From Vermamoeba vermiformis (lineage: Eukaryota), in contig JBEWZL010000302.1 in the NCBI GenBank assembly GCA_045837725.1, positions 434,001 through 498,000 on the forward strand: DNA of 64,000 bases. Direction: 5' to 3'. Below the pieces are notes generated by a model. It was given only the letters and a program-made list of their open reading frames with translations, had not been told where the DNA came from and ran no database searches. Below, piece after piece: positions 20,626 to 64,000 of this stretch. The translations under genes and the position numbers were made by a program. How positions within the stretch are numbered: the first letter of the stretch is position 1; each line of letters starts with the position of its first letter.

Positions 20626-23600
20626 TTATTTGGTGAAAGGAAAGTGAGGAGGAATTAACGGATCTCCAGTTCTGCGGTAGAATAAAAGTTGGTCCGATTG
20701 AGGGTCGTACAATAGCGCTGCCTTGTCAATACCGTCTTTCATCTTCTTTTGAACGTAATTAAGTAACGCTATAACTTTCTTCATGGCTGCCACCATTTTC
20801 TGAAGTAAAAATCAGATCCGAAATTCTGAGAAAAATTAACTAAAATACAATTGGCCTTACCGCAACGTCTACATGTGGTTCAAGTGACGCTAAAGTTTCT
20901 TCGATTACTTTGGTGACTTGAAGGCTCCTTTTGCGTTGTCCCAAGTATTTCGATTCTTTCAAGCCAAAAGCGAAATGATTAATTCCAGCGATGAATGATT
21001 GGAAATAGATCGAATTATATTCCATCCTATTAATATATTTTCATCAGTTCATTAATCTAATGATAATGGTTCATACTTCAATTTTGGATCGCTCAAGTTA
21101 AATCTGTCTTTCATGATTGATTTTAGAGCAATGTATTCTAATTGCTCCTGTTGCTTGCTATGCACGACAAAAGCCACATCGGACTTGTTGAATATCTCTT
21201 TGTTGTCTTTAATCGATGCTCCCTTCAATTGCGTTGTAATTGCATCATCGGAGTTTTTCGTTGACATTTGGCCGTCAACTTCGTACCGCATTAACACCCT
21301 GCGAATAAGTTAATCCATAAATCGTATATAGTTATACCTATTCTTACTTGTTATTGCCAAGATCAAATGAGCCGATGATATGGTACGCTACTTGACTGGG
21401 CTTACGCAAGCATTTTCGCTCGAACAACCACCTGCCATAGAAAATAAATTCTATAAAATTAAGAATATTGCCAGTCAATCAGTTCTCCTTACGCCGAAGA
21501 ATGAGTGTTCGCATCTGCTTCAGACTGCTGTTCATCGCATCGACCTAACACTAAGCAGCCGTCATACAGTTCCACGTCAATGCGACATAATTTCGTGCCT
21601 TCTTGCATGGCCCACGATAACAGTTTGCGCAAGTTATTCCGATCCGTCAAAATGTCATAATCGGCGAGCTAAAAGATCAAACAGTGTCAGTTTGATTTTG
21701 ACAGGTGTCACATGGTCTGATTTTCAAATTTACCGAGAAATCCTTAATGAGAGTTTGACAAGCGATCAACATTGGCTCGTACGGGTGCTTGAACAGAGCC
21801 TTATTGACATCGGCATGAGGTACGTCATTGTCACGACCAGTAGGCGAGATGTCAAACGGTACGTTAGGTTTATTGTACACTGCCTGCAATAAAATTAATA
21901 ATGCATATCAATTGACGGCCGAAAAATCTTTGCGTGACACGTGTCAACGGAAATGTCACTTATTTAATACTCACCGGCGATGCAGGGATGACTACGTATG
22001 GTTTAGATGTTGAAAAGTTTGTTTGATATGAAGCGATCTGCTTTGGGCGATGAGTCTTGGAATCAAAGTCGATCTTGGCGACATCCAGATCTTTTTCTGA
22101 AATCAGAAGCGGCTCCTTCAGCTAATTAATTAACATTAGCATAATTATTATAATCGAGTATTAGAGACTTACGCCTTGCTTAAATTTTACTCGATCTGCC
22201 TCGTACTGGCTTTCCTGATCTTCAATTAGCTCTTGGAGTAGGGCCTTGGCGTCGTTAATATTTTGCAAATTATTCGAATATGAAATAATTTCTGCGATGC
22301 CTTCAGGTTTGAAATTAATACGGCATTTCAAAGGACCAAAACTTTTTGTTTCGTAGATCAGCTTGCGCCTTAAATAAGGAGGATATTTAATGCTATAGTT
22401 ATGTTCCATCGCTAAGTGGGTATTATAAAAATTAACATTTTCTATTATTGACGGAGAATTTATGCAATGATGAGCACGCCGTGTTGAATCCAACACGTTT
22501 GACCAAAGTTTGACCGAAGAATTGTTTGGAATTTCATGATTAACACCAAAAATATCCGAATCCACTTAATCAATATTGCATGATAACTGGATTTGAAGAA
22601 TTTTTGAAATGGTCGATAATTTTTATAAATTTGTAATATTGAATTGCGGTTCAATGAGTTGCAAAGTGACTTCCCAATTGATAGTACCGTTATTATCGAC
22701 GTATTTAGGCCTTGCATCAATACCGTCGTGGTGTAGCGCTGAACCAAGCCAGTCTTCTGCTGCATCGTTCATTTGACCGCGGAAATAATCGTTGCGGATC
22801 CACGTCAACCATGTATTGCTTGGCTGATTATAGGTGAATACTTGCGAACCATCTATATAATATTATGATTAATACAATCGAGGCTCATAAAGATTTTAAA
22901 TTTTCAAGATCGTGATCTGAATCCGGATGTGGCTTACCGAAAGTAACGTCCCGTGGAAATTCGTAACTAGTATTATCTGGTAATTGAACGATTTTCAAGT
23001 TCTTCATACGAAGCAAGAAATTGGCAAAGAACTTAGTTGGACTTGATCGATTGTTGTTATAGCTTTCTTTGTCTTCTTCATCCGCCTCTTTTGTCAACAT
23101 AATGAAACTGACCGCATTTGATGCCCATACGAGTGACAATTTCCTAATTAGGCAATAAAAATTGTCAAAACGTTATCGGATCAAGATAATCTGATAAAAT
23201 TTATTCTAAGAGTTTCTATTGCATTGAATTATTTATCTAGATTGTTGATATATATTGAACTGTATCCTTATCATACGTACCAATTTCTATTGTTCACTTG
23301 GAAAGTCGACGAAACAGATCGGATCTTGCCGCTCAAAAATTTATCGAATTTTTTGAAAGCCAACGGCACCGTACGCAAGGTATAGCGTAATGTTGCGAGA
23401 CTAGTGTTCATTTCCTTATATGGATTGGTCTCCTTTTGCTCCTTATCCACAAAAAAGTTCAAATGAAAGCATTGTAACGAACCTAAGAAAAATTAACAAT
23501 TTATTTCCCGTAAAAACGTGTTACTTTTTAACTTACTCTCGTTATAATTATCGAATTTGCAGTACTCTTCTATGTATTTGTGAATGTCCTTGTTCTTTTC

Positions 23601-25650
23601 TGGATTAAAATTCTGCGGTTCCGGGCCACGCCTTAAGTTTTCGTTAAACAAAATTAGTAATATATAACTTATGGTTATCACTAGCGTACCCCCAACTGAG
23701 TTGGTCACTCGTTCTTGTCTCTTCTGAGTACCGATGTGCTTCGCGGATTGAATCAGCCGGCAAGGTCAAGTTTTGAGCCCTAAATTTATGTGTCAATAAT
23801 TTCTTTCTTGGAAACAGTGATATTACCGTTTATAGTAATCTTTGACCCAAGCTGGTGGATTCGGCAAATAGTCGCATAACCTTTGGTACTCGGTTTTGTT
23901 CCAACACTTCAGGAAACACCGCTTCATAATGGTTATACCACGAGTCCATCGTGCTATTACAAAAAGAAATCAGATACTTAAACGAATTTGACACGTGAAA
24001 AAATACGGAGTGACACGTGTCAAATGTCAAGATGTCAAGCATGGAAGGACTTACTTGGCCAATGATGGAATTCACTCTCACGGTTTAAGCCAAAATCTTC
24101 CTTTCCGAATGAAATTCTGAGCAATGCGATCTTATTCAAGCACATCAATTCGATCAGTTGACGTGTGCTCGGGTGAATATTTGCATCTATTTCCTCCTCC
24201 GAATCTAAATGTGTCGTTAATATCATCACAAAATAGTACTATTATTGTGCTATGTAATATATTATTATTGCTTACTGAACGAGCCGTGACCATGAACGCG
24301 GAGATGCAGCGGAGATGCAATGTTGTAGCCTCGAAAGTGATACTTGGCAAGTCTTTCCCAACGCAGTTTTGGTCCGAACTTGGTGCTGCTGTCGAGTATA
24401 TTAGATCCATAAGTCGATCCAAATATGAATCTGTATAGTAATCGTTAGAAAGTGTTGAAAAGTAGTGCATGCAAAAAGTACCTTGGAATTGTCAACACTG
24501 TCTGGCCATTAAATCCAACTGCAGATATCGTCAATACTTATTAATGCATCTATTGTTAATATGAATCTTACTCGAACACGAGTTCATGTCAGAGGCTAAT
24601 AAAATTTCCAACGGTGACACGTAAGTACTGCAAAAAAAATTGTCAGATCCGTTGTCATAACGGAGGCAACGGGTATACCTGAGAATAATTTGAATATTTC
24701 TGAAGCTTGAACTAGCGACTAATGTGATGGTATTTGCTGTTTTGAAAATTCCGATCGGCTCGCCCCAAGCTTTCAAGATCGATCTGTAAATTTCTTCAAC
24801 TTTCGCTTGTGATTGCTCTTTTGTCAGTCCATATAAGTAAATATCGATATCAGATGCATGGTATTGGCCGTATCTGCCGAACGAGTGTGGATTGTGTTGG
24901 GTCTCGTGTCGAAGAGATCCAAGGACTATGCCACCAACAACAAGAACGTTATTCCAATTTAAATATCGTAAACAACCATTATTTGCCATTTCATGAAAGT
25001 AATTCATGAACGCATCTCGATCGTAGAACTGGTATTGGAAACAAGTTGGTCCGAGATACGATTGCACGAGGGCCTGTTTGAGCTACAATTTCTCCCGTTA
25101 GAATACTCAATACTATTTGATATTTTGTACCTGATCAGTAGGTGCCAAGTGCTTCGTATTCAATAAAGGAATGATCTTCTTGTCTGCAAACACATCGATA
25201 ATAAGTGACTGTTCCAAGTAGGCGAGCAAAGGGTTTGTCGGATCTTTCCAATACAAGTAACGAAGCATATCTTCTTCTTGCTTGATACTACAACAATGTG
25301 TCGCATTATTAAACCATTAATTGATATTCACATTAAGGTTCGTACCTTGCGGCAATGACAAGCGGATCCAGCATCCAAACTTGGTCTTTGTAAATACATT
25401 TAAGCGTCGTAAAAGAGAGCTGCGAAATGATTTTGGCTTGAACGTCTTCTGGCAATAATTTAACGCACTTTTGAAAATAGTCTACAACTCGATCAGGTGT
25501 GGAATCCAAACTTGCAACAACAGATTTGACACTGGCAAGAAGGTTTCCTTTCTTCTTACGCTCGTTCACAGGATCGCTCGTAGCTTCGTTCATCCAAGCA
25601 CATATTGTACCAATGCAAAGCGAAGATAATGAAGGAGGCGAGTTTTCCAT
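20626..25650 (-). CDS. Large multi-exon protein: Pol-beta-fold nucleotidyltransferase-like domain fused to a C-terminal DXO/Rai1-like nuclease domain
   Basis: NTase motifs: 'LNWNNVLVVGGIVLGSL...SDIDIYLYGL...TANTITL...RNIQIILR...SPLEILLASD...ERLAKYHFRGY'. DXO-like motifs: 'IASYQ...YVVIPASP', 'DILTDRNNLRKLL', 'CRIDV', 'LMRYEVDG', 'IALKS', 'IYFQSFIAGINHFAFG'. Exons can be joined in frame through GT-AG introns; the join at ~22565-22687 is the least secure. Confidence 0.7.
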
Positions 25651-26193
25651 CGATCGAAAACGAAGAACGGATTTGACCTCGTCATTACAGACATAATTGT
25701 TACCTATTAAATTTGCACGTTAGTAATAAAATTTTTAAATATTAATCATGAGCTCTGGACCGACCTGTCACGTCAACCGCAGCATCTTCGATCTGAAATC
25801 CGAAATAAGTTGCTAATTATAAAAATAAAGCAAGGGAGTAAACAAAACGCCTATAAATATAGTTTTACTATTGATTTTTTCCTATTATTTATTACTTTAA
25901 TCCCGACCGGTCACATCCAGTCTGTGATTTTTCTCGTTAAGAAAATGAAGCTTAAAGAGGCCGATAATACCTGCATATCATCGAATTGTTCGGCTTCGTC
26001 CAAAAACTCGTTGAAATGGTCAGCCATAGTGTTGTTCAAGCGAAAGAAAATCAAATTTTAAGAAACACGCTCTTCTCACCCCGCTAAATTTTGGTTCGCT
26101 CGTATCGATTTCTAAATTGATAAGAGACTATTTCATAGTACTAAGAAAATGATTGGTCAGATTTAAATCTAATTATTAGATTAAGTTAGCTTT

Positions 26194-28736
26194 TTATTTT
26201 TCTTGCTTATTTTCGGTTGTTACAATTTCATTGCGTTGTTCTACCAACGATAAGACTTGCTGCATCCATACTAATGCTTCTTCGTACGTTATTTTGTGCT
26301 TTAATGGTTTAATATAAGCGTCGAATGTATCTTTCGTAATCCTGAATAGTTTTTCTTTGTGCTCTTTCAAGAAATACTGAAGAGCTACTTCGTTCTTAGT
26401 TTTGAATATTTCCAATAAATCTTCACACTCCCACTCCCAATTGATCCACCCATCCTTATTATAAATCTTATCAAAGTTGCTGAAAATGACCGGATCTGTT
26501 TCGTACTTGGCAATGAATTTGTGTAATTTAAAACCATATTTGAACTGCAATCTACGGGGCATTTTGTCAATATTACGAAGCGCATCGCGCATTAAATCGT
26601 AGTTCGGCCTTATCCGAGAATAACTGCTGGCTGGCCATTTGCTTTCAAAGTAAAATGAATAATTGTCGGTTATCAACAGCAATCTATCAATATCTCGTCT
26701 TTTTAATGCGTTCCCATAATTCAATACCAAGCCAGCGTGTTTTCTGAGCAACATTTCTGCGAATTGTACTGAAACTGTTGGTTCATCCACAAACTCGAAA
26801 ATAACTCGAATTAGCTCTTTTGGAAGCATTTTGAAGTAACTAGATTCATCTCCATATTTATGAGCCAATAATACCAATAACTTTCTTTCCGAGAAAATTT
26901 TGTGTTTTCGGTAGATCTGCGGAAAAGTGTCCAATAGAAAGTCGAGTAATTTCGGATAGTTGCTTCCACACTTGCTTTGATCAGGAATGCTTTCAAGAAT
27001 TCTCTGAAACCAATAAAGATTCATGAACGATCTAAACTGCAACAACTTCGTTACATCCATGAGGTACGGTAAAATGTCCCAAATATTCCCCTTATTCTCT
27101 AATAAGAATTGTATTCTAGCTATATGCTTATCCTCTACTGTCCGAAGTATATCATCAAAACAAAGCAGATTATTACTAAATTAAAAAATTAAATAATTAA
27201 ATAATTAAAAAATAATGGTTCGATTAGGTCTTACTCAATGGGCACACCAAGATCGTGCAAACATTGCATTACTTCAATTCGCGGATTATCGGAGTTCAAA
27301 TTCACCAAGTAAGGCCTGTACTGATACACAGCTGTCTTCCAATCTATCGCTGCGGTGATAACATTTAGCTCCAACGGTAATCGAATATAAAAGAAGTTGA
27401 TATATTAAGAGTAATATATGAATGTAGGATAATAAGTTAGTTTTGGCTTACGCGTTGATTGGTGGATCCGCTTCATTTCTTCAATATCCCCTGCAATGAG
27501 GCTCCGATAAAACTTGCATACCTCAGGTTGCTGCACCACGCCATTGTTCGGTATATAATATTTGGTATTGCCAACGAGACGTTTTAATGTCTGAGAGATG
27601 GATTCGGTGTTCGTGATCTGCAACGGCTTTACGACCAATTTCCAATTTTTGCATCGAAATACTTTGAATCCATTTCGAAATGCCACGCACATGCTATTGG
27701 GTTCTGGATAAATGTTAATATAACACTAAGAGAAATTCAAAATACGAACCAGAAATCAGTGAACGGTGGATCTCGATTGCAACCTCCGGAGTATAGCATC
27801 CAAAGAACCACGGTTGGTCTTCAATAGGCAAATCAAATAGTTCGGGCGTTATTAAGCATTTTTTAAAGTCTAACAAATAATTAGTATTGTTTAAATTGAT
27901 GAAAATTAATTACGATACTTACCCAGAAACATAGGGAGAATTAGCTGCGGCTCTAGCAATATCCCTTTAGCAAAAGCTTGCTGTATAATATTGCCAATAT
28001 TTTTTGCAAAGTTTAATCGTTCCTTATTCTCGAACGCTGAGCGAATTTTTTTGATAATAGCGGATGTGTCCCGAAAACCCGGGTAGTAGCCCCGTACATA
28101 ACAGTTGGTTAGTACGTCAAATAATAATAAGACCATATCTGTGCATCCTCGTTCATACGCCAATTTAATTGCCTTGACTAGCGCCACAGGTTTGAAGAAT
28201 GAAGAGTATTTCAACGGATGTCGTTTTGCTTGTAAGTCACGCCATACTATTACATCAAGAACAAGCATATAATTATGCAGAAATTCATACGAAGTGAGTC
28301 GTATTATATCGGGTAATAGTTTTGTGAGGGTTGGAAGGTATTCTGAGTGATGATAAATTTTGATAAATTCGCCACCAACTTAGATTAATGAGTTAGATCA
28401 CATATGTTGCATAAAGATAATATCTTACATTTAGAAAAGCCAGTAATATCGTTCGACCGAATTAATCTGTTCAGTTTAGTCTTGACAAACCTCGATCGGC
28501 CTAAAATGTGATATTATTAATTATCTCGCGAAAATTAAGTTTGAAAATTATAATTAAATACCTCGAACATATCTATAGCATATTTGAAGCAATATTTCGT
28601 CGTTTAGTGCTTCGTGAAATGTTTTTGAAGTGATTGAAAAATTCACGGTGGCTTTGAATAGCTCGTAGCTGTCTTCTGATTGCTTCAATCGCGAAAATAT
28701 TATTTTAAATACGTTGCTAATCTTTGTGACATCCAT
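26194..28736 (-). CDS. Uncharacterised multi-exon protein with an N-terminal F-box-like segment and an internal 'LPKELIRVIFEF' motif
   Basis: Exons 28554-28736, 27906-28268, 27405-27692 and 26194-27060 lie on the same strand, separated by GT-AG introns. Confidence 0.55.
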
Positions 28737-33873: not shown

Positions 33874-35634
33874 TTAAATAAGGATCACCAGCAATATGGT
33901 TACTAATACGAATAGATAGAAATCGCGAGTTGTAGATCCGCTGGTTACGGGCTTTCCGTCAGGACCGAGCACAGGTTGGGGTGGGGTAACAGGCGGTGGA
34001 GGACACTGAGCGTTATCTGGCTGTTCTGAGCATGGTGTACACGTGTCATCACCACTCATGCTGAATGTGCCCTCAGAACACTCTTCGCATGCAGTCCTGT
34101 TGGCGTTAGGCACCAATCCGTCACCGCACAAAACACATCCGGCAGTCTCGTTGAAGTACTTGCCACCAGCACACGTCAAGCACTTGCCTTTGTACGTGAA
34201 CTTGTCTTCGGGACACACGCATCTGCCGTTCTCGTTCAAATAGTTTCCGTTGATGCAGCCAAGCGACACCAAGATCGGTGCAGTGGCATCACCAGAACTA
34301 CTGCCAATGTAAATAGTGCCATCTGATGCAATAGATGGACCAGCACCTTCGATAGCCTTTGTGCTGGTGATCATTGTCCACATATTTTTCCAGCTGGTTC
34401 GATTGGTGACGTTGTACGCAGCCAAGTTGCCGACGCCATCAGCAGCATACACGACATTGTCCGCGTAAAACAACTGTGCCCTCACTTTACCAATGTTAAG
34501 CTGACCATTCAGTATCGATGTGTAGGCTTGTGATGAGGTGTCAATGGCGTAAAATCTGTCGTTAGTCATGATGAAGAGGTAGTTGTCGACCAATGCCGCT
34601 CCGTGCACAATTTCAGCGGGGTTGAATACTAGTGTCCAAACTGATACAGCTTCGAATGAGTACTTAGCCACGAAGCCATTTCTTGTTACGGTGTATATGA
34701 AGCCGTCGTTGGGATCCACAAGTGGCGGGTACGTGTTTGCGTCGTCGTAAGTCAGTCCGTTCATATTCACCGGGACTGCAAATACCTTGTCGCCAGCGTC
34801 TATGCCAAGCTTGACCATGTAGCCCTTTGTCGTTAAGAAAACAAGCGTGTTGTCAAAAGGCGAAAGAATTGGAGCCATGAATTGACCGGAGGATGAGTAG
34901 CTGCTTTGCGCAAAATTGAAGCCCCATTTAGCCACTTGTCCACCTTCTTTGATTAAGGCACCTATGACGCCTCCCAAAGGCACGTAGAGCGCGGTTTCGT
35001 CGACCAAAATTGGCGCGGAGAGCTTCACTCCAGATTCCGCTCCAAACATCGCGCAAAGGTCAGGCGAGGTCCATATAGTCGTGAAATTAGTCAAATCAAA
35101 TGCATGGAGCATGCACGAAGCTTCGTTGATAATGTAGAGTGTACCGTTGCTCACAGCGAGAGTTCCAGAGCACGATCCAGGAACGGTATCGTTGTACGAG
35201 TAAAGTACGGTTCCATTCTTACTGAGCACCCAAAATAGAGGTTCAGAAGATGCGCTATTCGGAACAATAATGTTGCCAGTCGAATCGTCAATGTTGATCA
35301 CGCCTAATTACACAAAACTAATTAGAAAAAAATAAGAATATTGTATAATACTGAAACAAAATTTATATGATTCAATACTCGCCTAATACCGCGGTTTAAA
35401 AATTTTAAAGATTTTGTACAAACTTAACCAGTACGATCTCGATCAAGAATCTTGCTTACCTTTGATTACGCTAGCATTAGGCTGCCTGAATGACCATTGA
35501 ATATTCGGTTGTACATTATAAACAGGACGCGTATGAACACCGTTGTTTCCAGCGGCCCATTGGTTCCAATCGCTTGCCACGAAGCCGATCTGTCCTAATA
35601 GGCATGCTGCGACGAACAAAATTAATAATCTCAT
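33874..35634 (-). CDS. Secreted/surface protein: signal peptide, PQQ/BamB-like beta-propeller, Cys-rich repeats, P-rich stalk, hydrophobic C-terminal anchor (paralog 1)
   Basis: Signal 'MRLLILFVAACLLG'; propeller blades such as 'GPSIASDGTIYIGS'; 'CEECSEGTFSMSGDDTCTPC'; hydrophobic tail without a cytoplasmic domain (GPI-like). Confidence 0.8.
33995..34154. repeat. 160-bp near-identical tract shared with 35846-36005
   Basis: Manual ungapped alignment shows 7 mismatches in 160 bp. Confidence 0.9.
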
Positions 35635-35733: not shown

Positions 35734-37414
35734 TCAGCAGCTCAGAATCACGGCAAAGAACATGCAAATAAAAGCCTTCAGTGAACGAAGCTGAGTGGCT
35801 TCGCTGACTTCAGTTGAAGGTACCGCGACTGGTGGGGTCACAGGAGGTGGAGGACACTGAGCATTATCAGGCTGTTCTGAGCATGGTGTACACGTGTCAT
35901 CACCACTCATGCTGAATGTGCCATCAGAACACTCTTCGCATGCAGTCCTGTTGGCGTCAGGCACTAATCCGTCACCGCACAAAACACACACGGCAGTCTC
36001 GTTGAGGTAAATTCCGCCCGAACAACTGACGCACACGCCATTCTCGTCTAAGTACTGCGCTTCAGGGCATCCAAGAGTGATCAAGGTGGGTGTATCTGCA
36101 TCACCAGAGGCGCTGCCGACGTAGATTGTGCCGTCTGAACCGATAGAAGGACCAGCACCCGTTACCGTGAAGTTGGTGCCAGCAGCGTTCATAGTCCAAA
36201 GATTTTTCCAGTTAAGTCGATCAGTGACGTCATACGCGGCCAAGTTGCCAAGACCATCAGTAGCGTACAAGACATTGTTCGAGTACAACAGTTGCGCCTT
36301 GACTTGACCGATGGTTACCTTGTCAATAACAACGGCATTGTACTCGCCAGTGGTAGCATTGATCGCGTAGAAAGTGTCGTTAGCATTGACGATGAGATAG
36401 CTGCGATCAATCAGAACGAGTCCGTGTTGAATAGACGTGTGGTCAGATTGGAGGGGAAAGCTGACGTTCCAAATGTACTGACCCGTCGGCGAGTACTTGA
36501 ACACCGAACCGACGCTCAATGTCACGTAGATCTCACCGTTTGTTAGATCCATCAGCATGGGGTACATGTTCGGGTCATTGTAGTTTGGGTCAGAAGAGAC
36601 TTTGACCGACCATCCCAGGCCCGAACTTGCTTTGGTCAGTTGGCTTGATGGCCAGTAGAGCACCGTTGTGGCATCGAACGGCGAGTAGGTTGGCGTGAAG
36701 AACTGAGCCGAATATTCTTCGTTAATGCGGTCGAAGGGGGCCCAAGCTCCACTATCCTTGTACAGGCACATAAATCCAGCTCGGAGCGGCACCATGACCA
36801 AATATCCTTGCACGATGGTGATCGGACCCGCGACAGGTCCGTCATTGGGCGGGAACAAACAAAGTTCGTCTGAAACCCACAGGAGAGTTTCGTTGATGAT
36901 GCTGACTGCAGAGACCTTGCACGTGACTTCGTTGAGTACATAAACGATCCCGTTTTCTACGGTCAACGCTCCTGAGCAAGATCCAGCCTCCGTGTCATTG
37001 AACGAGTAGACGATATTGCCGTGCTTGTCGAGCACCCAAAACAGCGGTTGAGATGAAGCACTGTTCGGCACAATAATGTTTCCAGTTGCATCGTCAATGT
37101 TGATAACGCCTAATGTAAAAATCGATTAGCTATTGAAGATCGTTCAAACGCTGGATTAAACACGTTATGCCAGAATATATAACTTTATATTTTTAATGTT
37201 AAAACTTCTGGATCAGGATCTGTCTTGCGGATCAGCGTTAGTTCTTACCTTTAATGACACTAGGGACTGGAGGATTAAATGACCATTTAATGTTTGGTTG
37301 AGAGGTGTAGACAGGACGATCGTGCACGCCATTGTTGCCGTTAGCCCATTGGTTCCAGTCGCAAGCAATAAATCCGATCTGCAGCAGAACAAGACCGAAG
37401 AAGATGAAACGCAT
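35734..37414 (-). CDS. Secreted/surface beta-propeller + Cys-rich protein (paralog 2)
   Basis: Signal 'MRFIFFGLVLLQIGFIACDWNQW'. Same single intron position after VIKG and same domain order as paralog 1. Confidence 0.8.
35846..36005. repeat. 160-bp near-identical tract shared with 33995-34154
   Basis: Manual ungapped alignment shows 7 mismatches in 160 bp. Confidence 0.9.
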
Positions 37415-42005: not shown

Positions 42006-43133
42006 TTAGTAGATGCGCATTCTCTTGTTGGAACGCTCTTCACCACCCCAGCGAGCTTCGGCACCTTTGTGACCAATCTCGTAGACTTTGTCCTTGGGCA
42101 TTGAAGCGAAGCCTTGCTTGCCAGAGCGGCGGTAGTTTCCGTTTCCTTGATCCTCATCTTCTGAAGACTCGCTCTCGGATTCGTCGTAGCCGCCTCTCTT
42201 TCTCTTGCGACCGCCACCGTGGCCATGACGACCACCTTTAGCGGCAATCTTGCGCACCTGCTCCTTGGGCATCGAAGCAAAGCCCTGCTTGCCGGATCTG
42301 TAGCCGCCTTGATCTTCGTTGTCAGAACCTTCGTCGCTCTCTTCGTCGGAGCCCTCATCGCTGTATCTTTTTTTGCGACCACCGTGTCTTTTCTTCCGCC
42401 CATTGCTTCTCTCTTCTTTTTTTTTCCCCCTTCCTCCCCCTTCTTCGTCGGAGTCTTCCTCTTGGTCGTAGTGGCCACCCTTGGCCTTGCCACCCTTTGA
42501 AGCAATCTTGCGGACCTGGTCCTTAGGCATGGAGGCGAAACCTTGCTTGCCGTGCTTGCGACTACTGCCTTGATCGTTGTCGGAGTCTTCATCGGAGCCT
42601 TGATCATCGTCGTAGTCTTGTCGTTTGCGACCACCGTGACTGGAACGACCACCCATGGAGGCTATCTCGCGCACTTGGTCTTTGGGCATCGAAGCGAAGC
42701 CCTGCTTGCCGTGTTTGCGACCACTGCCTTGGTTGTCATCAGAGCCTTCGTCGTGGTCAGAAGTGTCACGGCCGCGTTGTTTGCGACCATGGCTGGACTT
42801 GCCACCCTTTGACGCAATCTCACGCACTTGGTCTTTGGGCATCGAAGCGAAGCCTTGTTTACCATGCTTGCGACCACTGCCTTGGTTGTTGTCGTCATCG
42901 TCTTCGTCTTGGTCGTAGTGGCCACCTCTGGACTTGCCGCCCTTTGAAGCTATCTCGCGCACTTGGTCCTTAGGCATGGAGGCGAAACCTTGCTTGTTAT
43001 GCTTGCGGCCACCTCGATTGTAGTCGTCACTTTCGCTCTCGTCGTCGCCTCCATAGTCATGACGCTTGTGCTTGCCACCATGGCTATGGCGACCACCCTT
43101 GGCAGCGATTTCTCGAAGGCGATCTTTGTCCAT
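42006..43133 (-). CDS. KGG-repeat (GsiB/Con-10-like) hydrophilic stress protein; the true start may be 43207 via a 1-nt indel
   Basis: Seven copies of (GFAS)M[PD]KxxxxEIAxKGG separated by acidic and basic low-complexity spacers. Intronless. Confidence 0.85.
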   Translation of the reverse strand: MDKDRLREIAAKGGRHSHGGKHKRHDYGGDDESESDDYNRGGRKHNKQGFASMPKDQVREIASKGGKSRGGHYDQDEDDDDNNQGSGRKHGKQGFASMPKDQVREIASKGGKSSHGRKQRGRDTSDHDEGSDDNQGSGRKHGKQGFASMPKDQVREIASMGGRSSHGGRKRQDYDDDQGSDEDSDNDQGSSRKHGKQGFASMPKDQVRKIASKGGKAKGGHYDQEEDSDEEGGGRGKKKEERSNGRKKRHGGRKKRYSDEGSDEESDEGSDNEDQGGYRSGKQGFASMPKEQVRKIAAKGGRHGHGGGRKRKRGGYDESESESSEDEDQGNGNYRRSGKQGFASMPKDKVYEIGHKGAEARWGGEERSNKRMRIY

Positions 43134-44061
43134 GGAAGCAAATCCCCACGTCCGGCTTGATCTTGACCTTCGTCGTTGCTAATATCGTAGTCTTCTCGTC
43201 TGCTCATGGTTAAATATATTGCAGAATGCTTTTGTGGTATGTGTTTTGTTGGTAAGTTGAATTAAGAATAGATCCGTAAGCCAGAGCCTTTAAACCTTTC
43301 CGGAGCCCAAATGAACAGAAAACTCTGTTAAATAGGCGTAGAATATCGATGCGTGTCGTAAGATAGTAGCCTTCAATTATTGCATTGTGGTAAGTGGTAA
43401 TATTTTTTTAAATATTTTATCCTTATTCGGATCTTTGCTGGCAAAGCACAATAAAAATCATAAATTATTACACGCTAATTGCAAGGCCTAATGCGCCATT
43501 ATATCATCGGTCACGTCATTGGTTATTTATTTGGTTCGTTTTAATCATCTCTTGGGGTTTAAGTCTATTATTGTTCAGCCTTCAACTTCTAGATCTGCTC
43601 GCGAGCAGTCTTATTCGACTAAGCATAAGGTAAAATAGCCTTATTGGTATTAGTGACATTCTCCGATACTGTTTGATTGTGCGCAATTATAGTACAATAG
43701 CAATGTAAATACCGTGCAACTCTCTCTTCGTCTCGTTACATCATCAACTCCAATTATTTCGAAGAGATAGTGCATTTTCGCCTATTGTTAAAAATCTACA
43801 AAAGTTATTACTCATTCTTGTGGTGTTGCATTGTAACAGGATCCAAACCTGAATCGGTGAACGGACAAAGTTCGAGAAATCATATCCTGCTTCGGAGATT
43901 AGGATTTAGTACTATGAGGATCTCACAGGGGTGATTTTGAAGTTAGAGGGCGCTATTTTTGTGCTCGAGTTGGATTTCTATTCGTTAATTTTAGTGTGCC
44001 GCGATACCACACAAGAATCGCGTCATATTACCAAATTTAATCTGCAATATTTAATAGTTTC

Positions 44062-51046: not shown

Positions 51047-54000
51047 ATGATCTCTTCTGCATCACGAAGCCTAGCATTTATTTTGCTAATTTTTGGATGC
51101 TATCTGCGTATAAACAATGTGCGCGCAGCTACCGTGCCGTTAACAGCCACCGAGCAAGAAGCTCTTATGAATATTAGAGATGCATTTATTAACTATCCAG
51201 CGAACTGGCTTAACACCACTGTAGCAAATCCATGCGGAAAATGGACTGGCATTGCATGTAACGGAGCCGGTGTATTTAATAGAATACAACTGACTGGAAA
51301 GGTAAGTCTATCATAATTACAATTAATTAATTTTCAAGCCATAATTTAATTAAAACTCGTTGTAACGTTTCCGAGTTGTGTTCGATCCGAGATCTCAAAG
51401 ATTTATTTCGCAAGGTCTATCGGTTGGTCTAATATACTTTGTATTTTAGCTTTCAGGTGGAACTATATCGCCTTATATTGGCAATCTTACGAACCTCGAG
51501 GTATGGGACACGTCCCATTTTGGTTCCGAAATAATTCTGAACGATGTACCCTTTATTTTAGATCGTTAAATTGGAAAACAATGGACTTACTGGCACAATA
51601 CCGCAAGAAATAGGCTTATTAACCAGTTTGACAAATTTATGGCTCACATCCAACCAATTAGAAGGATCGCTTCCGGATGCGATTGGCCAGTTACCAAATT
51701 TGGATTCGCTGCGCCTAAACTCTAACGAGCTCACTGGTACTATACACAGCTCAATTGGAAATATTACAGGCCTGGCAGAATTTTACGCGTCGAATAATCA
51801 ATTCAGCGGTACCATACCGAGCACTTTCTTCAATAATCCAACATTGGCGACATTAGATCTATCAGGAAATGACTTTACTGGCGGTATTCCGGAAGATATT
51901 GGTGCTTTGACGTCGTTAGGAACGTTAATTTTGAACGATAACAGACTCGGCGGAACGATCCCGGATTCAATCGGCCTTGCGAAGAAATTAACGCAATTAG
52001 ACCTCGAAAATACACTTATTGAAGGCACTATTCCATATTCTATGGGCAATTTGACCAGTATGGCCTACTTGAACTTGGCATCCAACAACTTGGTCGGAAC
52101 TATCCCCGATAGTCTGAGCAAAATGAAAGTCCTGAAAGAAATTAGATTGAGCGAAAATTCATTTGAAGGAACAATCCCCGACGTATTTTACAAGAATATA
52201 ACGACTATTTCGGTCTTGGAAGTCAGTCGCAATGCTTTTTCGGGAACGATCCCGGACAACATCTCCAATTGGAAATTTTTGCAATCATTGCGTTTGGACA
52301 ACAATCAATTTAGCGGCACTATCCCTACGACGATTGGACAACTTCCAAATTTGCAGATCTTGACACTCAGTGCGAATCAATTCTCCGGAACTATTCCGAA
52401 CTCGATCACGCAATTAACTCGCATTAGACAGTTGGAAATGACAGACAATCAGCTCGAAGGCACTATACCAAGCGACATTAACAAATTGATCTTATTGACA
52501 TCGTTGCGCATGGACCGAAATATCCTCGTTGGAACCATCCCTGATTTGTCAACTTTGCTTGTCTTACAAACACTTCTATTGAGCGACAACGGCCTCACGG
52601 GAAGTCTACCCGAGTGGAATAACTTGGGACAACTGACCAGCATTGAACTCAGTAACAACAAGCTGAGCGGAACAATTCCAAACTCGGTCGGTCAGTTGGT
52701 TCGACTTCGAACATTGCTGTTGGACAACAATCAATTAGAAGGCTCGGTGCCTGCTTCAATAGGCAATGCAGGAGCACTGCTCAATGTTCAACTGCACAAC
52801 AATAAGTTGAGCGGATCTCTGCCCGAAGAATTGTATTATTTAACTGGACTTCAATTCTTGCTACTGAACAACAACCAATTCAGTGGCACACTATCAGACT
52901 CGTTACAATCGCTTAATAATATCCAGCAATTGGTTCTCAGCTTCAATCAGTTCGGCGGATCCATTCCGAATGTCTTTGCACAATTTTCACGACTTCGAGA
53001 ATTCTCAGTCGACAATAACCATTTCAGCGGGTCTATTCCCTCATCGCTTTCCAATTGCACGTTATTATCGACGCTATATATGGAAGCCAATCAGCTTGAT
53101 GGAGAAATTCCGTCTGGATTCGGATCCGTTTCAAAACTCACGCGCATGAAGTTCAACAATAACCACTTATCTGGCACTATTCCCGACGATCTTGGCAATT
53201 CAAACTCGTTGATCGAGATCGATCTCTCTAGCAACCAATTGTCCGGATCTTTGCCAGCCTCATTGGGCCGGATCAGATCCCTTCAAACGCTTGGACTTAA
53301 CAGCAACTCTTTGAGTGGTTGTATGCCCTCTTTTGACACGCTCATTCCGGAGTGTAGAATATCTTCGAATATGTGGCAATGCAACTGTTTCAACAGCTCC
53401 TTGTGTCAAACTCAAGATCAGACTGTTTGCGTAGATCCCGAAAACGAATCATTCAAGATAGGTCTTATTGTTGGACTTACTATTGGCGGTGCTGTAGTAG
53501 CAGGCGGTAAGTTCCGTTTATTTGGTAGCTCCTTCCTAACTGAATTTTCCTAATTTAGTAATCGTCTTTGCAATCCTGTTCTCGCGTTGGAAGAAAAAAC
53601 GAGGAATTTTCTTGAGCATTAAAGAGCCGAATTATCAATTGGTGGCTTTTATGAAAGATTTGACCTTGCAATACAAATATAGTGCGAGCGATGATTACAA
53701 GTACGTACACTTGACATTCTGAATCCAACCTTCTGAATCCAAAATTTACTTTCTTAATTAGGGAACTAGAAGATATTCTGTTCAGTACTGATCGAACTTT
53801 CTTATCGTGCCTAGTGTCAATTACAGCCGCTACCGAGTTTGACTTGGTAAGTTTACTATTGATCACTTTACAACGTTTTTCCTTCTTGGTGACCCCTCCT
53901 TCCTTGTTTGGAAGCGAATTGCTATATTTGGAATATGTCGGTTGTTAATAACAAGCCCTCGTCCAAAAAAATTGTTCGGCGCCTCCACGAAAAATACCAT

Positions 54001-59683: not shown

Positions 59684-62600
59684 TCACTTGTCGATCCATT
59701 TGTTGAGCAACAAGTAGATCTTCTCCATCGAAGCAGGTTTGGTCAAATAATCGTTCATGCCCGCCTGTTTGGCACTCTCGATCAGTTTTTCATCGGTATG
59801 CGCACTGAGACCGACTATAACCGTTGGAGACACGCCCAGACTGACTTCTTGTTCGCGGATCTTCTTCGTTACTTCAATGCCGTTCATCAGAGGTAAGGTC
59901 AGGTCCATAAGTACTAGCTCAAACTCGTTTGGTTTGAACTTATCGAGTACTTCTGGGCCTGTCGATGCCAGAACGGATTCGTAGCCTTGTTTCTTCAGTA
60001 AATTTTTCAATAATGTTTGATTGATAATGTTGTCGTCCACCACGAGGATAGGTTTGTGCACTCTCTTCTCTTTAGGCTCCTTCGGTTTGGCAATATTTTG
60101 GCTCACCATATCGTCCTTAGTTTTTTTCTTGCCAGCGTCAGCACTTGCCCACTGAGCAATAATATTTACAATTTTGTCGAAGGTCGCGGGCTTGCTGATA
60201 AAGTCGTCCATGCCAGCATTGATGGCTTCAACAATCTTCTCGGGCTGAGCATAGGCACTCAAGCCGATAATAAATGTTGGGTGAACCACCTTGTTTTGTC
60301 GTTCGCGTTCACGAATGCGTTTGGTCACTTCAATGCCGTTGAGCTCAGGCATGGCAATGTCCATCAGAATGAAGTCAAATTTGTCAGGCTGGTACTTCTC
60401 CAATGCATCCACGCCGTTATTGGCCACTTCGCACGTGTAGCCTTGTTTCTTCAACAAGCACTGACACAGCACTTGATTGATGTAGTTGTCTTCCACGACG
60501 AGCACATGTTTCGTGTGCACACGTGCTTTGACAGGGATCTCGGGACTTCTGATTGTTTCCTCGCCAATCGAAGAGCAGCTGACCGCAAACGAAAAGCCGT
60601 GTTCAGCGTCCTCTTCTTGGTCGTGCATGACTTCGATCTTGCTGCCGCCCATCGCCTTGACCAAAAGATTACTGATAGCCAAGGTGAAGCCCGTGTTGCT
60701 GTAGTGCGAGCCCATGCTGCGATTAGCAAACGAATGCTGTTGCAGGGAAGTTAGCATTTCAAACGCCGTCTGATCGATGACTAGCGTGCCGCAGGTGATA
60801 CGCGTGCTGAGTTGTGAAGTTTGCTCGTTGATCACATTCAGCGACTGCGATAAAACAATGTTGCTGCCTTGAGGAACGGAGTCAATAAGGTAGATCAGCA
60901 ATGCGTTGACGATGTGCGCCAGACAGCGTGAGTCAATCTTGACACGCAGACCGAACTTGACAGGCTGTAATTCGACAGTAATGCCACGCATCTCGAGCCT
61001 GTCGGTATGAACTTTGACAATCTCCGTGAGTAAGCCAGCAGGATCGCAGACAGTTTGAGCGAGTTCAAACTTGTTCGAGTAGAGCTTGGTGAGCAACACG
61101 ACCTCGTCCATGACGCGTGTCTGATGAGCTGTGCATTCTTCCAGATTGCTGAGGTACTCTTTCATGTCCAACAGATTCGTAGCTAGGTTCTGGTCAAAGT
61201 GTGTGATGGGTGAGCTGTGTTTGGAGACGCTCTGCCAAGCCTTTTCGAGTGAGAACAGTCTGTCGGATAACAACTCCCAGCTGCCTGTGATGCCGTGCAA
61301 GGGATTGCGAATCTCGTGACAAATCATGTCAATGAACTCATAGAGGGCCGTGTTGAGCTGACGAAGTTCCTTGGTCTTCTTGTCAACTTCGCGCTCCAAG
61401 TGCATGCGGAGTCGACCAAGTTCGAGGTGGTTCTTGACACGGGCAAGTAACTCTTTCTCTGAGAACGATGTCTTGACCAAGTAGTCGTCGGCGCCTTTTG
61501 CAAAGTATTAGTATCAAGCCAAGCAATAAAATATTAACTGGCTGGCACTTACCGTGGCCTAAACCTTCTACCTTTGCCTCTTCACCAGCACGCGCAGACA
61601 ACAAGATGATCGGAATCCCCTTCGTGACTGGATTCTCGCGAAGCTTTTGGATCAAACCAAAACCGTCAAGTTTTGGCATCATAACGTCACTGACAACCAA
61701 GTCCGGAGGATTTGCACAAGCCATCTCGTAAGCTACTTCTCCATCGGTGGCTGTGTCCACGTGCCAAGCCTTTGCGAGAATTTGTCTAATGTAGTTACGC
61801 ATGTCCACGTTGTCATCAGCCAGCAGCACGCGATAATTCTTCGGGTTGCTAATTGAGCTTGACTCCGACTCTTCCTCCATATCAGCCGAGTGCTCGCCCC
61901 ATCGTGTAGCTTCTTCAACGATCGAGTGACTGTGCAATGAAAGCGTGGTATCGCTTGTGTTCTCTTCTTTGATCTTGTCTTGCGGCAAGTGATCCCGACC
62001 CAGTGGGATATGAACTGTGAATGTGGTTCCTTCGCCGAGTTTGCTAGCGACAGTGATGACACCGCCGTGCAGCTTAGTGAGTTCTTGAATGAGCGCAAGA
62101 CCAATGCCTGAGCCTTCGAAGCTTCGGCCTTGTGAGGTTTCGACCCGATGGAATCTACGGAACATGTTGGGCAGTTCGTGTTCAGGAATGCCCACGCCCG
62201 AGTCCTTGACGCTAAGTTCGACGTGATCGCCAACTTTCTTTAGCTCTACGCGGATGTGTCCTTTGAGTGTGAACTTGTAGGCGTTGGAAATCAAGTTCAT
62301 GACAATCTTCTCCCACATCTCTGTATCGACGTAGACTAGTTCGTCTATAGCTTGAACTTCGACAATGTAATCTAATGAGGATTGCTCCATGACTGACGTG
62401 AAGAGTTGACAAAGTTCACGTGTCAGCTTGGTAAGGTCTGTAGGGGTAAAGCAAATTTGAGCGCGTCCAGCTTCAATGCGCGAGAAGTCCAAGATAGTGT
62501 TAACGAGCTTCAACAGCCGCAGTGCATTTCTTTGGATCAAGGTCTGGCGAGCTTTCTGACGCTCGTTGAGTGGATCGGTTTTGTCAGCAAGAGAATCGGC

Positions 62601-64000
62601 CAAAGGTCCCAACATTAAGCTGAGGGGCGTGCGGAACTCGTGACTGACGTTCGTGAAGAACAAAGTCTTCGCGTGATCGATCTTAGCCAACTCTTCTGCG
62701 CGTCTCTTCTGCTCTTCGTAAGATCTGACGGTGTCCAAAGCCTTGGCAATGTGACCAACGACCATGTCAAAGAATGATTTGTAGTCTGCGTTGTAAAGTT
62801 GACGAGGACTAATGCCAGCGACAAATACACCGATAGGCTTCTCTTTTGCATCGGAAATGATCGGCAATACGATGGCCAGATCTGGTGACTCGGGCCAAAT
62901 ACCTCCTGGAAGCCGACCGACTTTGTTGTTCAAATCGCTGACCTTGATGGAGTGCATGGCATTAATCACTGCCGAGAATGGCCACACGCAGTTGTTAGAC
63001 TCGATGTCAACTTTTTCTGGGCAAGCTGCGTGACCAGGTTCGATGCCTGTGTAAGACTGCAGAACCAACGTCTTCTCGTCGTCAAAGAGGTACATGAGCG
63101 TGAAGGGCAGGTCAGCAGGGCACGTGTTCAGTGCTTTGGAGAGGGCCATGCAAACATCGCGCGTTGTGCCTGTCTTGTCGGTGGCACTAACTTCACGTAG
63201 CAGGTCCATTCTGCGAGTATTAAGCACTTTCTTGGTAGTTTCGAATGTCACGTTGATTACACCAACCACTTTCATTTCCTCGTCGAAGATTGGAGAAAGT
63301 GAAAATGTAAAGTAGACTTCCTCAGCAAATCCATTGCGTTCCATAACGAGCATCAAATCTTGTTGCAAGTTAGAGCTTTCGCCTTGTAGAGCTCCTTCGA
63401 GCATTGGCATAATTGAGCCCTTGATATCTCCCCAGATCTCCAGACCCTTCTTGCCCATAGCAGGATGTTTGTCGCCAAGATAAGGACGATAAGCGTCGTT
63501 ATATAACAGATAAAGATCTTTGCCCCACCAAATACTCATCGGAAATTCGTTCTTCAAGCAGATGTTGACCGTGATGACAAGACTTCGAGGCCAGGAGGTA
63601 ATAGGACCCAAGCCGGACTTGCTCCAGTCAACTCCGAGCATGTATTTGCCCATTTCACCTAATAAGTCAATTAGTGATGAGATTTCTAGATTTTTAGTCC
63701 GGATTTAATCCGTACCGCCAGATTCGATCAGCTCGAAAAAGTTTCGCGGAAGGTTAGTACCCGTTTTAACGACCGGTAAGATCGTATTGTTGACGCTCGA
63801 TGGTTCTTTGCTGGCTGCGGTGGCGGTCATTTCCTGATCGGGATTCGTCGCGCGTGGCAGTCGCAGTGTCACGGTGAATTTAGTTCCTTGGCCTTTACTG
63901 CTTTCCACCGATATTTTGCCACCCATAAGCTCTACGAGACCTTTGCAAATAATAAGTCCGAGCCCAAATCCTCCGAATTGTGTTGCGATGGAATTGTTCG
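59684..64000 (-). CDS. Multi-module hybrid sensor histidine kinase; 5' end outside the window
   Basis: Domain order: HATPase end ('GFGLGLIICKGLVELMGGKISVES'), PAS/GAF ('WSKSGLGPITSWPRSL'), HisKA ('VSHEFRTPL'), HATPase, REC ('SDVMMPKLDG'), HisKA ('CHEIRNPLHG'), degenerate HATPase, REC, REC. Confidence 0.93.

Follow-up and report, generated by a model that had tools for sequence, protein, structure and literature searches.

Among the described protein families closest to the locus considered here are a phage protein, Gad2, and the Rai1/DXO proteins. Gad2 is the anti-Gabija protein of Bacillus phage SPbetaL7; in the preprint's own account it is predicted by AlphaFold to be a nucleotidyltransferase (NTase), and its homologues "almost always reside in phages and prophages" (10.1101/2023.05.01.538930). 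Where two reviews of 2026 touch on its mechanism, they still describe it as unknown (PMC13670838, PMC13728456). The Rai1/DXO proteins have six defined motifs, and the motif description in PMC4513879 gives the glutamate of motif IV as one of four metal ligands. A locus with likenesses to both is found in a stretch of 64,000 nucleotides from Vermamoeba vermiformis (contig JBEWZL010000302.1, positions 434,001 to 498,000), which is referred to as the window and whose positions are used throughout. The original prediction read 20626-25650 as a single, apparently continuous spliced open reading frame (ORF) for an NTase fused to a DXO/Rai1-like nuclease. Our exon models, built by hand and by script, resolve 20626-26027 into two genes in tandem on the minus strand, both split by short GT..AG introns, and the two are very probably independent of each other, a gene for a Gad2-type NTase being followed by one for a Rai1/DXO-like protein. 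The layout is as follows.

22623-26027, minus strand: gene 1, predicted Gad2-family NTase, 15 exons, 783 amino acids (aa), ATG at 26027-26025, TAA at 22625-22623
22623-22625, minus strand: TAA stop codon of gene 1; five homologues end at the aligned residue
22410-22622, minus strand: spacer of 213 nt between gene 1 and gene 2
20626-22409, minus strand: gene 2, predicted Rai1/DXO-like, 8 exons, 451 aa, ATG at 22409-22407, TAA at 20628-20626

The G+C content around the locus is ~38%. All 21 modelled introns are bounded by GT..AG; twenty of them are 47-137 nt long, and the other, intron 1 of gene 1 (178 nt), was modelled from homology. The splicing with short canonical introns that had been proposed is borne out, and the proposed end at 20626 is correct, being the stop of gene 2. 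The start placed at 25650 is an internal methionine: two more 5' exons lie at 26027-25971 and 25792-25765, where the translation agrees with the N-terminus of the homologue P0018, and intron 25764-25704 is seen in contigs of the RNA run X6. Gene 1 aligns with P0018 from end to end (residues 1-781 against 1-755, 56% identity), and the homologues P0001 and P0002, which are 59% and 52% identical to the largest NTase exon, are colinear with every gene-1 exon in tblastn. The five homologues that reach the C-terminus of gene 1 have identities of 52-59%.

The X6 contigs come from a related organism, designated B, and are 90-99% alike to the locus. They skip 11 of the modelled introns exactly, six in gene 1 and five of the seven in gene 2; therefore, they derive from spliced RNA and demonstrate that organism B transcribes and splices the two genes. 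The splice model of gene 2 is validated by a phmmer match of 58 bits to the homologue P0015, which is colinear across three exons (gene-2 residues 161-306). Within the open frame of gene 2 there is no ATG upstream of 22409.

The TAA at 22623-22625 was present in the original prediction as well, and it proves to be the conserved stop of gene 1, with the ATG of gene 2 lying 213 nt downstream. All five homologues that reach the C-terminus, which represent two independent 90% clusters (P0001, P0016 and P0018; P0002 and P0020), terminate at the residue that corresponds to the final codon ahead of this TAA. P0018 (757 aa) is encoded on a contig of 2421 nt, so at most 147 nt lie outside its ORF. The last 20 residues of gene 1 are conserved in P0001 and P0002, and therefore they are coding and not intronic. 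The gene-2 homologues P0015 and P0023 are stand-alone proteins of 309 aa on contigs of 1071 and 1341 nt, and they begin where gene-2 residue ~146-161 aligns. The Rai1-like region was found neither in gene 1 nor in the nine longer proteins that are homologous to the NTase. At the protein level, this is the arrangement that the original prediction had named beforehand as the one that would speak against it, that is, a stop at this TAA and a separate start downstream. The fused NTase-DXO protein is therefore not supported, and with it goes the basis for a coupled tailing/decapping enzyme; what remains is gene adjacency alone, and there is no new architecture to explain.

As for gene 1, a search with its largest NTase exon retrieved the nine longer proteins mentioned above, eight of which carry a precomputed label for PF26128, the family that the protein Atlas names "Gad2". 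The likeness to an NTase family common to fungi and giant viruses, proposed earlier, is thus supported, and that family now has a name, Gad2/PF26128. For profile comparison, a eukaryotic alignment of gene 1 with P0018, P0020 and P0003-P0009 was set against a phage alignment of the SPbetaL7 Gad2 (annotated coding sequence OQ921347.1, 109563-110765) and eight further homologues out of 199 matching records. The two align in hhalign with Prob 96.0 and E 4e-9 over 145 columns, from gene-1 residues 191-361 (737-aa numbering) to Gad2 residues 18-166. Gene 1 by itself against the phage profile gives Prob 59.2 and E 9.1e-5, and alignment A3 against the single Gad2 sequence gives Prob 47.9 and E 1.9e-4; the controls stay at 0.2 or below for ten column shuffles, at 0.1 for the reversed alignment and at 0.1 for the gene-2 family. 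Because of this profile match to phage Gad2 and the shared motifs, and with the controls negative, gene 1 is, as far as sequence comparison can tell, a eukaryotic Gad2-family NTase whose catalytic set is intact. The motif positions are as follows.

24307-24974, minus strand: Gad2-type Pol-beta NTase domain of gene 1, residues ~237-407, four exons and three introns, placed by hhalign, the AlphaFold2 (AF2) model and VIA-align
24930-24959, minus strand: NWNNVLVVGG, helix-turn G-G motif; G228-G229 invariant in alignment A6; aligns with AGG of phage Gad2
24837-24854, minus strand: SDIDIY, DxD metal-binding motif (D278, D280); D256 and D258 invariant in A6; aligns with NDVDIY of Gad2
24576-24602, minus strand: LLASDMNSC, third carboxylate D348; D326 invariant in A6; aligns with FDFTVC of Gad2
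24319-24354, minus strand: RLAKYHFRGYNI, R..KY..RGY motif; aligns with LRVQKYTDKEYTI of Gad2

The first, second and last of these motifs had been picked out in the original prediction, and they are real and on the minus strand. The catalytic set of gene 1 (G250-G251, D278-I-D280 and D348) is invariant in eight eukaryotic homologues and aligns with G31-G32, D45-V-D47 and the Asp of FDFT in Gad2. The R..KY..RGY motif is present in eight of the nine aligned phage homologues, the row of Streptococcus phage SW22 reading MKY. A Pol-beta-fold NTase core in the upstream part of the locus, also proposed earlier, agrees with the AF2 model of P0001, in which residues 91-240 form a core with a predicted local distance difference test score (pLDDT) of 62-89 and for which the top VIA-align matches are class II CCA-adding enzymes and other NTases; Foldseek returned no row at E<=0.001 for the same model. 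Outside the NTase domain, gene 1 has ~236 N-terminal and ~375 C-terminal residues with no recognised family.

Two results weigh against the Gad2 assignment. A local Pfam scan gave no PF26128 match for P0001, P0002, P0003, P0004, P0005 and P0009, three of them scanned at E<=10, presumably because the model is missing from that copy of Pfam, and so membership of PF26128 rests on the precomputed label and on our own hhalign comparison. In the Atlas, the clusters nearest to the gene 1 family are from Basidiomycota and Nucleocytoviricota, with scores of 0.84, 0.82 and 0.77; scores under 0.9 count as leads only, and all of those for the gene 1 family are under it. The PHROGs matches are weak (phrog_1614, "nucleotidyltransferase", E 0.008 with P0018; phrog_4400, E 0.006 with P0004). 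A tblastn search with P0020 against 50,697 phage records gave no match, and therefore the relationship to Gad2 is visible to profiles only. Searches of viral contigs with P0001 and alignment A6 found no relative. We found no paper that describes eukaryotic Gad2 relatives, and supplementary tables 10-11 of the Gad2 preprint might list exceptions.

Among the phages themselves, tblastn matches to the NTase part of Gad2 (residues up to ~196; L003 1564-2766, L004-L011) occur in 199 records, including enterobacterial jumbo phages and small Streptococcus thermophilus phages. At least 80% of the 400-aa Gad2 is covered in only 10 of these 199 records, and the domain by itself therefore has a much wider distribution than the complete protein.

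Because the full G-G / D-x-D / D set is present, gene 1 most likely encodes an active nucleotide-transferring enzyme. Its acceptor may be an RNA 3' end, since the nearest solved folds are those of class II CCA-adding enzymes and poly(A) polymerases.

Turning to gene 2, the features that relate it to Rai1/DXO are these.

20629-21787, minus strand: Rai1/DXO-like domain of gene 2, residues ~161-451, placed by Pfam RAI1 matches, homology to P0015, the Atlas and the motif map
21647-21633, minus strand: TDRNN, motif I (R188), placed by motif order
21285-21271, minus strand: YEVDG, motif III (E271-V-D273), placed by motif order
21118-21132, minus strand: IALKS, motif IV, with Ala322 (GCT at 21129-21127); this residue is Glu in Rai1/DXO and in P0015 (EMK)
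21010-20996, minus strand: IYFQS, motif V (Q348), placed by motif order

These four motifs had been seen before, and they are real, lie on the minus strand and form a Rai1/DXO-like series; the alanine that was said to replace the glutamate of ExK is likewise there. The full set in gene 2 is R188, AWLFE241, E271-x-D273, A322-x-K324, Q348 and G360-L-K362, an assignment made by motif order without a significant alignment to any Rai1 sequence. In motif II, AWLFE, the Gly is replaced by Ala; the corresponding stretch of P0015 is GHNYE. At motif IV, where E-h-K was looked for, gene 2 has A322-L-K324 and P0015 has E-M-K. Since P0015 keeps E-M-K, the Glu-to-Ala change is specific to the lineage of gene 2, and because of the alanine gene 2 is not filed as a canonical, catalytically complete Rai1/DXO protein. 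We regard gene 2 as probably a divergent Rai1/DXO-like protein that is catalytically weakened or rewired.

A word-based protein search with two gene-2 exons gave no match, and an exhaustive search with the 59-aa exon gave six, of which P0015 and P0012 are true relatives. The other four, P0010, P0011, P0013 and P0014, were dropped as repeat-protein artefacts, having 3 to 11 short matched stretches each, and P0013 and P0014 being internally repetitive. Viral contigs searched with P0015 yielded nothing. In the Atlas, P0015 scores 0.97-0.96 against three mainly ascomycete clusters (63, 54 and 67 members, 300-436 aa) that are automatically named "Geranylgeranyl pyrophosphate synthetase" and have no Pfam family. 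Its best row with a named family, at rank 11, is a cluster from nematodes, 49% of whose members carry RAI1 (score 0.89, 176 of 256 features shared), and it counts as a lead. P0015 carries the complete E..EVD..EMK..Q set, and the motifs would suggest that the "geranylgeranyl pyrophosphate synthetase" family, whose name is an automatic label, is nuclease-like and not a group of prenyl-chain synthases. We found no paper on this family or on a link between it and Rai1; the RAI1 of PMC9780802, which came up in the literature, is the retinoic-acid-induced RAI1 and is unrelated. The misnamed, mainly fungal family is probably a divergent Rai1/DXO-like group and offers a lead for annotation.

Gene 2 appears to be maintained. 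Of the 120 differences between the locus and organism B, 40 are listed, and 21 of those 40 fall in gene 2, 16 of them synonymous and five non-synonymous; therefore, gene 2 is under purifying selection. In the scheme that we propose, the product of gene 1, with translation stopping at the TAA at 22623-22625, would transfer nucleotides, presumably to an RNA 3' end. Gene 2, starting 213 nt past that stop, would supply a separate protein whose C-terminal ~290 residues have motifs like I, II, III, V and VI of Rai1/DXO and Ala in motif IV, and this protein would most likely bind or hydrolyse RNA 5' ends, with its catalysis weakened or rewired.

Three other readings of the locus have to be weighed. 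Gene 2 might not be a Rai1/DXO relative at all, its motif likeness being convergent or a matter of chance and its fold and function being different, and several results speak for this. P0015 has no Pfam match at E<=1, a sequence search of the PDB with P0015, two exons and profile A5 returned nothing at E<=10, and the AF2 model of P0015, built on a 5-row alignment, has a mean pLDDT of 30.3 and confirms no fold. Two exons of gene 2, scanned singly, match Pfam RAI1, one over profile positions 74-124 (15.1 bits, E 0.014) and the other over 229-265 (11.6 bits, E 0.17); both scores are under the gathering score of 26.8 bits, and the exon with EVD and ALK has no RAI1 match. The spacings from motif I to II, II to III and III to IV differ from those of Candida albicans Rai1, the motif V Lys lies nine residues before the Gln instead of seven, and the Atlas row with RAI1 is a lead only. 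However, two of ten fragments match one family out of 24,736 models and do so in the right order, and by our own estimate the chance of a second RAI1 match at E<=0.17, given the first, is p ~6e-5. The two matches are colinear and fall on the exons with motif I and with motifs V/VI. All six motifs are in canonical order, and two spacings, 24 residues from K324 to Q348 and 12 from Q348 to G360, are identical to those of the solved C. albicans Rai1 (K246, Q270, G282; R284); the complete motif set of P0015 argues in the same direction. A gene 2 unrelated to Rai1/DXO is therefore rather unlikely, and a divergent Rai1/DXO-like protein is the reading that we keep. The two other readings concern how the genes are connected. 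A single NTase-Rai1/DXO fusion would need an intron that removes the TAA, for example one of 123 nt from 22687 to 22565, and we consider it extremely improbable. The two parts are on one strand and 213 nt apart, no stop interrupts the frame of gene 2 between 22565 and 22409, and full enumeration finds 15 in-frame GT..AG pairs that would skip the stop, the best donor, at 22687, scoring 6.5, which is inside the range of real donors (5.9-11.0). A fused isoform in frame is thus formally possible. However, the intron from 22687 to 22565 would remove the 20 conserved residues, the five homologues all stop at the TAA, and none of the nine longer proteins is fused. The three usable acceptors score 2.3-4.1, that at 22565 having the 2.3, against 4.5-11.8 for 20 real acceptors, although the scoring matrix was trained on those same 20 introns, which flatters their scores. 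No joint crosses the gap among the 15 X6 joints listed out of 18, 11 of which fit modelled introns. X6 depth is 0 in the bin 22411-22611, which takes in the would-be exon 22411-22565, and 4-11 in the neighbouring exon bins, and 22410, where one X6 contig ends, is the base directly ahead of the gene 2 ATG; contigs cannot show RNA ends, so depth and contig ends are to be taken as support only. This limit counts against two separate genes, as does the finding that no read from the organism itself spans or ends in the spacer: the RNA runs X16-X18, which have the window's species label, gave 44, 72 and 45 matched reads, with 0 at >=99%, and so they carry no information on where transcripts of the locus end. 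Of the runs listed as containing the stretch, none is recorded as RNA, and its small shares in water and aquifer metagenomes are no evidence of habitat.

Two independent genes could still work together, as a co-transcribed or co-regulated pair of an NTase and a Rai1-like protein that acts on the same RNA ends, for example in conflict or in RNA surveillance. We consider this improbable. The genes are on the same strand with only 213 nt between them and both are transcribed and spliced in organism B; phage Gad2 inhibits Gabija, in the account of the preprint (10.1101/2023.05.01.538930), Gad2-type domains occur in giant viruses according to the Atlas, and the P0002 contig of 3372 nt leaves ~1.58 kb beyond the ORF. 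On the other hand, the neighbour upstream is equally close (~165 nt) and unrelated, and for either gene there are homologues that stand by themselves on short contigs. That neighbour, 26194-27180 on the minus strand, is an intronless ORF of 328 aa with no Pfam family; it ends ~165 nt upstream of the gene 1 ATG, so that there are three same-strand genes with spacers of ~165 nt and 213 nt. Since the upstream spacer is as tight as the other, tight same-strand packing is the local norm, and adjacency by itself says little. Metagenome contigs searched with P0002 and alignment A2 held no relative. A bolder version, in which the Gad2-type NTase and a Rai1-like protein with a crippled metal site form a conserved eukaryotic two-gene module, maybe exchanged with giant viruses, seems highly improbable. 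If it were true, the Rai1-like protein would recognise an abnormal RNA 5' end and the NTase would mark or repair the same RNA, and the module would be a eukaryotic counterpart, or a target-side relative, of a phage anti-defence enzyme. Adjacency is the one link shown between gene 1 and gene 2, and the two are ordinary neighbours from little-studied families.

Two observations on RNA from the locus stand apart from these questions. Reads of X16-X18 match 21265-21300 and 22347-22387 at 90-95%, with loose ends at 21300 and 22387, beyond which they are similar but not identical to the adjoining exon or start region of gene 2; in 93-96% of what was matched, unlike sequence follows. The reads point to a diverged copy of gene 2 that is expressed and has the same intron position, either a paralogue or the orthologue of another strain. 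In addition, one X6 contig joins 21596 in gene 2 to 23689 in gene 1 with 11 foreign letters between them. The ends of this joint are non-canonical (GC..TA), and we tentatively read it as a chimeric or paralogous contig and not as a splice.

The remainder of the window has other features that do not touch these two genes. The minus-strand ORF at 42006-43178 is intronless, 390 aa long and made up of KGG stress-protein repeats (PF10685, E 1.6e-59, six stretches); its patch has a G+C content of 47.6%, compared with ~38% around it, and an AT skew of -0.24. The KGG repeat is a bacterial motif in the description given by Pfam (PF10685), and the ORF is possibly a horizontally acquired gene or one for desiccation or stress. 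Two tandem, paralogous and intronless minus-strand ORFs at 33874-35307 and 35734-37125 (477 and 463 aa) lie in a block of 45-46% G+C; they match PQQ_2/BamB-like propellers (E ~2e-7) and have a Cys-rich stalk, a Pro-rich linker and a C-terminal hydrophobic tail. At 59684-63704, on the minus strand, a large hybrid histidine kinase extends over two long ORFs, with GAF, HisKA and HATPase_c domains and three response-regulator receiver domains, and its G+C content of ~48-49% is well above the window average. Finally, the plus-strand ORF at 51562-53553 is intronless, 663 aa long and leucine-rich-repeat receptor-like, with a C-terminal hydrophobic segment; among its matches is LRR_ComC, a model that takes its name from a Dictyostelium protein.

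How the two predicted proteins compare with the described systems can now be stated. In the NTase domain, gene 1 shares with phage Gad2 the succession h-h-A/V-G-G, N/S-D-h-D-h-Y, F/S-D-x-x-x-C (with the third Asp) and R-x-x-K-Y-x-x-x-G-Y. However, Gad2 has 400 aa, whereas gene 1 has 783 aa, is intron-bearing and is eukaryotic, and its host is not expected to have the Gabija system that phage Gad2 blocks. Anti-Gabija activity belongs to the phage founder of the family, and nothing leads one to expect it in a eukaryote. Class II CCA-adding enzymes, poly(A) polymerases and other Pol-beta NTases (4wby, 9kma, 3wfo, 3h37 and 1miv, and the TENT5/FAM46 structure 6jyj) are also close to gene 1. The Gad2 family has relatives in microbial eukaryotes and fungi whose genes bear introns and are transcribed and whose catalytic set is intact, and these provide a lead both for annotation and for tractable biochemistry.

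Rai1/DXO/Dxo1 proteins (PF08652), which are nucleases that decap and deNAD RNA 5' ends, are like gene 2 in having motifs I-VI in the same order (R, PhiXPhiE, EhD, xhK, PhihQ, GhK). Unlike Rai1, gene 2 has ~30 extra residues between motifs III and IV, and it bears an unrelated N-terminal extension of 145-160 residues. With the uncharacterised "Geranylgeranyl pyrophosphate synthetase" family, to which it belongs and which P0015 represents, it has in common TDRNNLRKLL, RID.EL, YEK/FER, R.EVD and the Q motif, but it differs in its greater length and in the Ala at the Glu position of EMK. Drosophila Cutoff is a Rai1-like protein without the catalytic residues. Another case is C. elegans y47h10a.5, which is treated as a nematode RAI1-like gene in PMC12381656. 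Both are lineage-specific Rai1-like paralogues, and, likened to gene 2 by description, they set a precedent for a non-canonical or binding-only role such as gene 2 may have.

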